64,000 nt of DNA from Octopus vulgaris (Eukaryota). Where the stretch lies: contig OX597834.1 of the NCBI GenBank assembly GCA_951406725.2, positions 6,882,001-6,946,000 on the forward strand, written 5' to 3'. The notes beneath the pieces are model-generated. The model had not been told where the DNA came from. It made no database searches and was given only the letters and a program-made list of their open reading frames with translations. Position 1 is the stretch's first letter, and every line of letters starts with the position of its first letter. Position numbers and translations under genes: made by a program. Positions 8,943 through 9,443 of this stretch are shown here, piece after piece.

Positions 8943-9443
8943 TACGTAAATATAAGAGAGTTACCGTTAAGTGGTTAACTCTAGTGCTAGAAATAGCTCC
9001 TTATTCTGGTATAGCCACCGAAGTTGTTTCCACAAAAGAAATAACATTACCTTCAATGTAAGGAAAGTGGGTATTTATCGCCCATGAGGGTCTAATAAAT
9101 TGTATCGAAGACCAATGCTGCTGATGACTTATTGATAAATATGTGAGTATAATTACATATTATATTGATAAAGAAACAATTGTTCAGCATTAATCTATCT
9201 TTTCGTTGTATTTCACTTTCCTTACATTGAGGGTGATGTTATTTCTTCTGTGGAAACAACTTCGGTGGCTATACCAGAATAAGGAGCTATTTCTAGCACT
9301 AGAGTTAACCACTTAACGGTAACTCTCTTATATTTACGTATAAATTTGTATTGTCTCCCTGGTTTTTATGTGCTAGGCCACTTGGTATTAAACTGATGGT
9401 ATTATTAAATTAATATCTAATTTTTCACCCTCATTTATGAATT
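8943..9443 (+). mobile_element. Fold-back element in (TA)n with ~127-bp arms, hammerhead in the loop and ~100-bp tail
   Basis: Near-perfect inverted arms 8943-9069/9214-9340; (TA)n on both sides. Confidence 0.85.
9114..9191 (+). ncRNA. Type I hammerhead ribozyme with intact core
   Basis: AATGCTG-CTGATGA-[long AT-rich stem II, 9128-9172]-GAAAC-AATT-GTT-CAGCATT: 7-bp stem I, palindromic AACAATTGTT stem III, GUU triplet. Confidence 0.8.

Follow-up and report, generated by a model that had tools for sequence, protein, structure and literature searches.

A hammerhead-containing hairpin of Octopus vulgaris belongs to a non-coding retrozyme-type repeat family whose paired arms end at two different fixed points

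The window analysed here, 64,000 nucleotides of Octopus vulgaris DNA, contains at positions 8943..9443 a long hairpin whose loop carries a hammerhead motif. The element is a copy of a non-coding hammerhead repeat of the non-LTR retrozyme type and, throughout this family, the two arms of one insertion end at two different fixed points. We consider it very probable that the locus is an old, neutrally decaying retrozyme copy, likely inserted into a (TA)n tract by the reverse transcriptase-endonuclease of a Penelope-like element (PLE), the hairpin being a likely by-product of the insertion. The window locus is in itself of little weight; it is the family-wide rule on ends that is of wider interest.

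The hairpin locus and its repeat family

Sequence comparison places the arms of the hairpin at 8943-9069 and 9214-9340 (127 bp each), on either side of a 144-nt loop. They mismatch at three positions (9035/9248, 9048/9235 and 9052/9231), two of which are U.G wobbles on the plus strand, and they stretch into the TA repeat to 138 nt at 96% identity. The near-perfect hairpin described in an earlier note on this DNA is thus borne out, and folding the RNA, as that note had suggested, gives a predicted minimum free energy of -263.4 kcal/mol, far below that of shuffled sequences (z -27.4, 0/100 shuffles equally stable).

The insertion lies in a (TA)n target, the left part of which has 63.5 copies (8818..8944) and the right part 42 copies at 87% match (9444..9527). 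A forward, 5′-truncated copy, which comprises 374 bp of a unit of about 490 bp (9070..9443, plus strand), stops at an end that we call A. It includes the type I hammerhead motif (9114..9191, plus strand) and the right hairpin arm (9214..9340, plus strand), which stops at an internal site, B. The second arm (8943..9069, minus strand) is an inverted, 5′-truncated copy of 9214-9340, whose 3′ end is the B end of the family; the one-sided "tail" of about 103 nt from site B to site A (9341..9443, plus strand) is missing from it. At the head-to-head junction, two nucleotides (9068..9069) agree with the arm as well as with what lies upstream of 9070 in the family, which amounts to microhomology. The locus as a whole corresponds to 0.76 unit plus the inverted arm.

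No contig from four DNA-type runs and four runs guessed to be RNA spans the junction 9069/9070, which could be taken as a sign that the hairpin is an artefact of assembly or of fold-back in the library, but in a high-copy repeat this absence proves nothing. The arms differ at three sites, the left arm starts exactly at the B end of the family, and 54 further loci have the same A/B layout, each with its own junction; assembly fold-back is unlikely for these reasons, and we regard an artefact as hardly conceivable.

When 9070-9443 is compared with the genome, all 40 scored candidates (of 1858 first-look candidates) match at 93-100%. A 29-mer from the arm occurs 93 times without mismatch, in 77 loci (control: 0), the exact hammerhead pattern has 44 matches, and 117 distinct loci of the family were examined in all. 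Natural tandems define a repeat period of 489-491 bp, each unit having a single hammerhead: L015 is a head-to-tail dimer with a period of 491, whose longest stop-to-stop frame is 76 aa, and L038 and L055 are also head-to-tail dimers. The unit is non-coding, with no frame over 76 aa. Most copies are shorter than 1.5 units; they are dispersed, and their 3′ ends run into (TA)n. Since the target is a microsatellite, a target-site duplication is unreadable. The divergence from the commonest base has a median of 3.0% over 79 loci, and is 2.1% for the window copy. The polarity that the earlier note had assigned to the class (hammerhead, arm, tail, (TA)n) is correct as an order but incomplete, for the unit is a circularly permuted repeat of about 490 bp whose 3′ ends are two internal points. 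Pieces of the family are present in the four guessed-RNA runs, as contigs in which strand, ends and circles are not distinguishable, and one of which reads through the hammerhead.

Elsewhere in the window, 117 frames reach at least 75 aa; no host exon was apparent among them, the 14 longest being judged by eye. A 210-aa frame at 43562-44191 (minus strand) resembles, by eye, the C-terminal portion of the reverse transcriptase of an RTE-type LINE. A 184-bp unit, which resembles a SINE present elsewhere in the window, forms tandem arrays at 22266-22820 (3.0 copies), 59072-59875 (4.4 copies) and 62627-62999 (2.0 copies); a 326-bp unit is present twice, at 95%, at 11751-12404, and a minisatellite of about 1 kb with 25/50/101-bp periods occupies 32620-33593.

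Pairing of the two ends and origin of the two arms

The 3′ ends of the copies lie at A (window positions 9442-9445) or at B (about 9340, over some 10 nt of TA-like sequence), and are followed by TA repeats; both are at TATA-like microhomology to the target. Of the 77 loci chosen by the arm 29-mer, whose position is upstream of A and of B alike, 42 have an inverted second arm. Among these 42 loci, 37 are A/B, two are B/B, none is A/A, and three have one damaged end; for the 39 loci with two intact ends, the binomial probability under independent choice is 1.4e-9. The full set of 101 distinct loci, which includes 30 chosen for a full forward copy and 19 chosen for a B end, contains 48 A/B, two B/B and no A/A loci, and four with one damaged end. 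Twenty further loci comprise four chance pattern matches and 16 others, of which seven are A/B and one is damaged, so that the overall tally with both ends intact is 55 A/B, 0 A/A and 2 B/B. The search for sister copies with other inversion points, which the earlier note had proposed, is answered positively. Its description of the window hairpin as a key element is not sustained: two-armed insertions are as common as the 42 of 77 loci indicate, and in 13 of the 46 other analysed A/B loci the stem is at least as long.

The arms of one locus resemble each other more than they resemble those of other loci. Over 34 loci with an overlap of at least 40 nt (three loci of an older subfamily were left out), the arms diverge by 2.5% within a locus versus 4.3% between loci (Wilcoxon P 2e-7), and 72 derived variants are common to both arms versus 16.7 expected. 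The low divergence and the common variants indicate that both arms come from one source, or that they have been converted later.

The first cDNA, or an antisense template, might have folded back and primed itself, and so have made the second arm without a second priming on the target. Self-priming from palindromes has been argued to occur at inverted junctions of rotifer Penelope elements (PMC3846280). The window locus, whose B arm lies inside its A arm, is formally compatible with such a route, like 22 of the 47 simple A/B loci (one complex locus was dropped), and a few junctions are near-perfect palindromes (L133; L211 and L212). However, at the other 25 of the 47 loci each arm has sequence that is absent from the other, so that fold-back copying is excluded for these loci; the figure is 23 of 34 when the loci picked for a full forward copy are set aside. 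Nor does fold-back account for the regular association of a first arm begun at A with a copy that stops at B. As a general route it is refuted by the loci with mutually unmatched arm sequence, and we find self-priming a decidedly improbable origin of the second arm. Simple L1 twin priming in which the A arm is blocked at site B is also rejected, based on the lengths of the A arms, which spread from 22 to 867 nt.

We infer instead that two separately primed cDNAs were joined at their truncated ends, which accounts for all cases. The junctions of the 47 loci consist of 24 overlaps of 1-8 nt, five blunt joints and 18 inserts, and the lengths of the two arms are uncorrelated (rho 0.15, P 0.41). 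There is no excess over background of 5′ ends near 9070 (3 of 37 in 15 nt), as might have been expected from a transcription start at that place. The whole hammerhead is in the A arm alone in 14 of the 47 loci.

Starting from what is observed directly, that is the family, its unit, its targets, its two fixed 3′ ends, the rule of one A and one B end and the variants common to the arms, the insertion may be pictured as follows. The enzyme would bind a multimeric or circular RNA of the unit and nick both strands of the TA tract. One 3′-OH would prime reverse transcription at A and the other at B, about 103 nt upstream, both on RNA from one source. Both cDNAs would stop at random, and their 5′-truncated ends would be joined, with 0-8 nt of microhomology or a short insert, to give head-to-head arms. 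The hammerhead of the window copy would be in the loop solely owing to the lengths that the two arms reached, 374 nt for A and 127 nt for B.

The hammerhead motif and its sister families

The sequence of the window copy has the core of a type I hammerhead (CUGANGA, GAAA and NUH around three helices), with all 11 core positions intact. Stem I (7 bp) is formed by 9114-9120 and 9185-9191; it is followed by CTGATGA (9121-9127), a long stem II (9128-9172), GAAAC (9173-9177), AATT and GTT (9182-9184). Cleavage is predicted after 9184, at the triplet GUU. Stem III, of 2 bp, is closed by a palindromic loop. In the predicted fold of the 88-nt motif, stems I and II are formed (z -2.95, 1/200 shuffles as good). 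Rfam gives no hammerhead at gathering score in the window, and none among the 61 matches at E<=10 in 8900-11200.

The core is constant in 11 aligned homologues, which were chosen by this core, and 96% of 198 cells of their helices are paired. Two-sided changes affect five of the seven stem I pairs and two of the four basal pairs of stem II; the covariation score is 0.407, versus 0.209 for shuffled alignments and at most 0.121 for slid controls, in a set made of related, core-selected sequences with the structure taken from the window copy. In L088, which belongs to a more distant hammerhead family, the palindromic stem III is kept through a double change, which agrees with the dimer pairing that PMC4209133 describes for PLE hammerheads. 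Covariation, which the earlier note had named as a check, is thus found across homologous families, and judging from these alignments the window copy carries a genuine motif of the hammerhead class.

Position 10.1-11.1 is C.A in the window copy, so that the conserved G10.1-C11.1 pair is absent. Among 76 family segments this position is U-A in 49 and C.A in 27, and it is G-C in a sister family with a 534-bp unit and in intermediate families; the cleavage triplet is GUU in the window lineage versus GUC in the young 534-bp family. Given the shortness of stem III (2 bp), cleavage is predicted to occur solely in a dimer, via the palindromic stem III, and to be weak in this lineage. The "self-cleaving loop" of the earlier note is doubtful for a lone copy that is predicted to need a dimer and has no G10.1-C11.1 pair.

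In copies that were not chosen by their hammerhead, substitutions affect 20 of 670 core positions versus 532 of 18807 positions elsewhere. The core thus changes at the neutral rate, which means that an intact core is expected without selection; it is intact in 42 of 61 family copies. The earlier note was right about the places of the core elements, but their intactness is the outcome of a neutral decay of about 3%. None of 66 true family copies begins at the predicted cut, and two end within stem III. Four seeming 5′ ends at the cut were rejected, for they are chance 15-mer matches without family sequence.

A looser hammerhead pattern has 2547 matches in the genome (control: 0), and among the 100 of these that were listed, most belong to the tandem family with a 534-bp unit. 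This unit is homologous to the unit of about 490 bp along its whole length (327 of 543 aligned columns), with intermediates at 70-83% identity, and its loci L153, L154, L164, L167 and L168 have G10.1-C11.1 and a GUC triplet. The 534-bp family forms head-to-head arrays of up to 13 units, which obey the same A/B end rule. It is young: units within a locus are 0.1-0.4% apart, and opposite arms of the arrays differ by 0.14%, versus 3.3% between loci. Seven of eight matches break at the cut versus seven of nine at a control site (three share one foreign context), which is no clear excess. L211 and L212 have a palindromic junction, the predicted cut lying within 1-3 nt of the end of each arm, a sequence hint that cleaved RNA may have served as template in the 534-bp family. 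This family suits cleavage and circle tests better than the window locus does.

L088, L155, L158, L160 and L161 represent further hammerhead families, whose stem III is palindromic and whose copies have ends of their own, likewise fixed and at (TA)n; beyond the core they have no homology to the 490-bp unit. The window also has a second type I hammerhead (8681-8730, plus strand) with a long stem III and a GUA triplet, whose fold is no better than that of shuffles (z 0.33). It is part of an unrelated repeat (about 8550-8817) that runs up to the left border of the (TA)n in which the hairpin lies. Over 136 nt, this element is 100% identical to the copy at L106, which has a short palindromic inverted 5′ piece; the identity indicates that this family is young.

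The few differences between the arms of the window hairpin had been read as the sign of a young event. In fact their divergence ranks 13th of 34 loci, in a family whose median is 2.5%, and it is about 17 times that of the arrays of the 534-bp family. The substitution rate of octopus is near 0.36% per million years; from this background rate and three differences, the window insertion would be about 3 million years old, with a range of about 1-10 million years.

A transcript of either strand would form double-stranded RNA, and the earlier note had seen in it a substrate for ADAR or Dicer. One may ask whether selection has kept the locus as a double-stranded hairpin whose self-cleaving loop feeds these enzymes. 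The predicted hairpin is very stable, its hammerhead core is complete, family sequence is present in the guessed-RNA runs, and Penelope elements attract small RNAs in rotifers and flies (PMC3846280). On the other hand, the core mutates at the neutral rate, the divergence of the arms is ordinary, and the ribozyme has C.A at 10.1-11.1 and a stem III of 2 bp. According to published assays, single minimal PLE hammerheads show no cleavage in vitro (PMC4209133), and eight of nine frog retrozyme dimers did not cleave (10.64898/2026.07.22.740005). The genomic copies have no RNA-editing footprint in the form of an excess of sense A>G (46) over T>C (71, P 0.35), and the A>G differences in the guessed-RNA contigs include reversions to the common base of the family and are inseparable from paralogues. 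Being an ADAR or Dicer substrate is a property of any transcribed inverted repeat, none of the guessed-RNA contigs is specific to the locus, and nothing points to a role; we consider selection for the hairpin very unlikely. Across the genome, double-stranded RNA may plausibly come from the many inverted arms, among which nothing singles out the window copy.

Penelope-like elements and comparison with known systems

The hallmarks of PLEs are an inverted 5′-truncated copy, a one-sided tail and a bias for (TA)n (PMC8557442; PMC3846280), and how they produce inverted repeats and a one-ended tail is still open according to PMC8557442. The protein of the lizard PLE PAc nicks and extends both strands in vitro; its two start sites on the RNA are internal and delimit the tail, the site of initiation not being homologous to the target, the protein is predicted to be a dimer, and it does not need hammerhead cleavage in vitro (PMC11167929). 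Metazoan non-LTR retrozymes have been proposed to be moved by PLEs (PMC7229834; 10.64898/2026.07.22.740005).

The octopus genome contains many elements with a reverse transcriptase and a GIY-YIG domain, which have the same layout (hammerhead-like motif, B, tail, A, (TA)n); their two 3′ ends are about 37 nt apart and are followed by (TA)n. A Neptune-type PLE (L170:3245-5587, plus strand; also L086, L091 and L183), present in many near-identical copies, has a 781-aa frame coding for both domains; it was assigned to its clade by the cysteine linker described in PMC8557442, a motif and not a tree. Its 3′ region has a hammerhead-like motif with U3-A8 replacing C3-G8 and a palindromic stem III. A search for GIY-YIG gave 148 matches among 6136 candidates, and BLAST finds no DNA homology of the unit to an autonomous PLE among the 50 GIY-YIG loci that were compared with it. 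Since the unit and these 50 loci have no DNA in common, mobilisation by a PLE is argued from architecture and from the published proposals.

No frame with reverse transcriptase and GIY-YIG is present in the unit or adjoins the window copy. One could consider the unit as the solo pseudo-LTR (pLTR) of an undiscovered autonomous PLE, rather than as a separate non-autonomous retrozyme: most copies are shorter than 1.5 units, solo pLTRs are common in PLEs, and the comparison covered 50 GIY-YIG loci. Yet the sequence upstream of the unit is, at the 117 loci, always the same unit, an inverted arm or flank, and never coding DNA; the head-to-tail dimers L015, L038 and L055, and the homologous families in arrays of up to 13 units, also argue against a solo pLTR, which we regard as unlikely.

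Keeping to a non-autonomous retrozyme, we tentatively propose that the A/B rule, with arms that have one source and often duplicate the same stretch, could have been left by an asymmetric PLE dimer priming the two strands of the target on a single retrozyme RNA, circular or multimeric, that has two dedicated start sites; this would also explain the inverted pLTR and the one-sided tail of PLEs; the loss of G10.1-C11.1 might then mark a lineage that was still moving after its ribozyme had weakened. This proposal may well be right, but we hold it with reserve. Some observations speak against the general reading of the locus as a PLE-inserted retrozyme copy: among the 101 loci, two are B/B and four have one damaged end, so that they contradict or evade the rule, the variants common to both arms could also reflect later gene conversion, and the predicted cut is never the 5′ end in the 66 true copies.

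One-sided tails have already been described in print, qualitatively; the strict pairing rule was not found there. Among the papers listed by our literature search, none deals with cephalopod retrozymes or with such a rule; the supplements of PMC7229834, of PMC4209133 and of the preprint may list such elements. Dozens of short insertions now supply a quantitative rule that is testable with the in vitro PLE reaction. Homologous families with and without G10.1-C11.1, old and young, in one genome, make it possible to test if spread depends on ribozyme activity and if array length is set by it.

In L1 twin priming, two 3′ ends of the target prime on one RNA, which gives an inverted 5′ part. Here, unlike in L1, each of the two priming sites has a constant, internal position, and as much as a whole unit can be present in both arms, a duplication that requires either a multimeric or circular RNA or strand displacement.

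The unit resembles metazoan non-LTR retrozymes (PMC7229834; 10.64898/2026.07.22.740005), which are likewise low-GC, non-coding units a few hundred base pairs long with one type I hammerhead, present as tandems and as dispersed monomers. Its size of about 490 bp exceeds the 150-450 bp given in PMC7229834 and falls within the 51-972 bp of 10.64898/2026.07.22.740005. Head-to-head arms with two fixed ends do not appear in the parts of these two accounts used here; the window lineage differs from retrozymes also by having lost G10.1-C11.1, in an element known here from its DNA.

The hammerhead is close to the minimal and atypical ones of PLEs (PMC4209133), which are also of type I, with a long helix II and a small palindromic helix III through which dimers are predicted to pair. 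Unlike those described there, it has a helix I of 7 bp and a helix II of about 19 bp, its positions 9 and 10.1 follow each other without an additional base, and the conserved G10.1-C11.1 is replaced by C.A.

Endonuclease-containing PLEs (EN+; Neptune/Naiad-type targeting; PMC8557442, PMC3846280, PMC11167929) have the same partial tandems, inverted 5′-truncated copy, one-ended tail and (TA)n targets, with a hammerhead upstream of two fixed 3′ ends. The octopus unit differs from them in that it has no open reading frame and that its tail is about 103 nt long, versus 30-40 bp; it differs from the lizard PLE PAc in that it ends at microhomology to the target, whereas the start site of PAc is not homologous to its target (PMC11167929).
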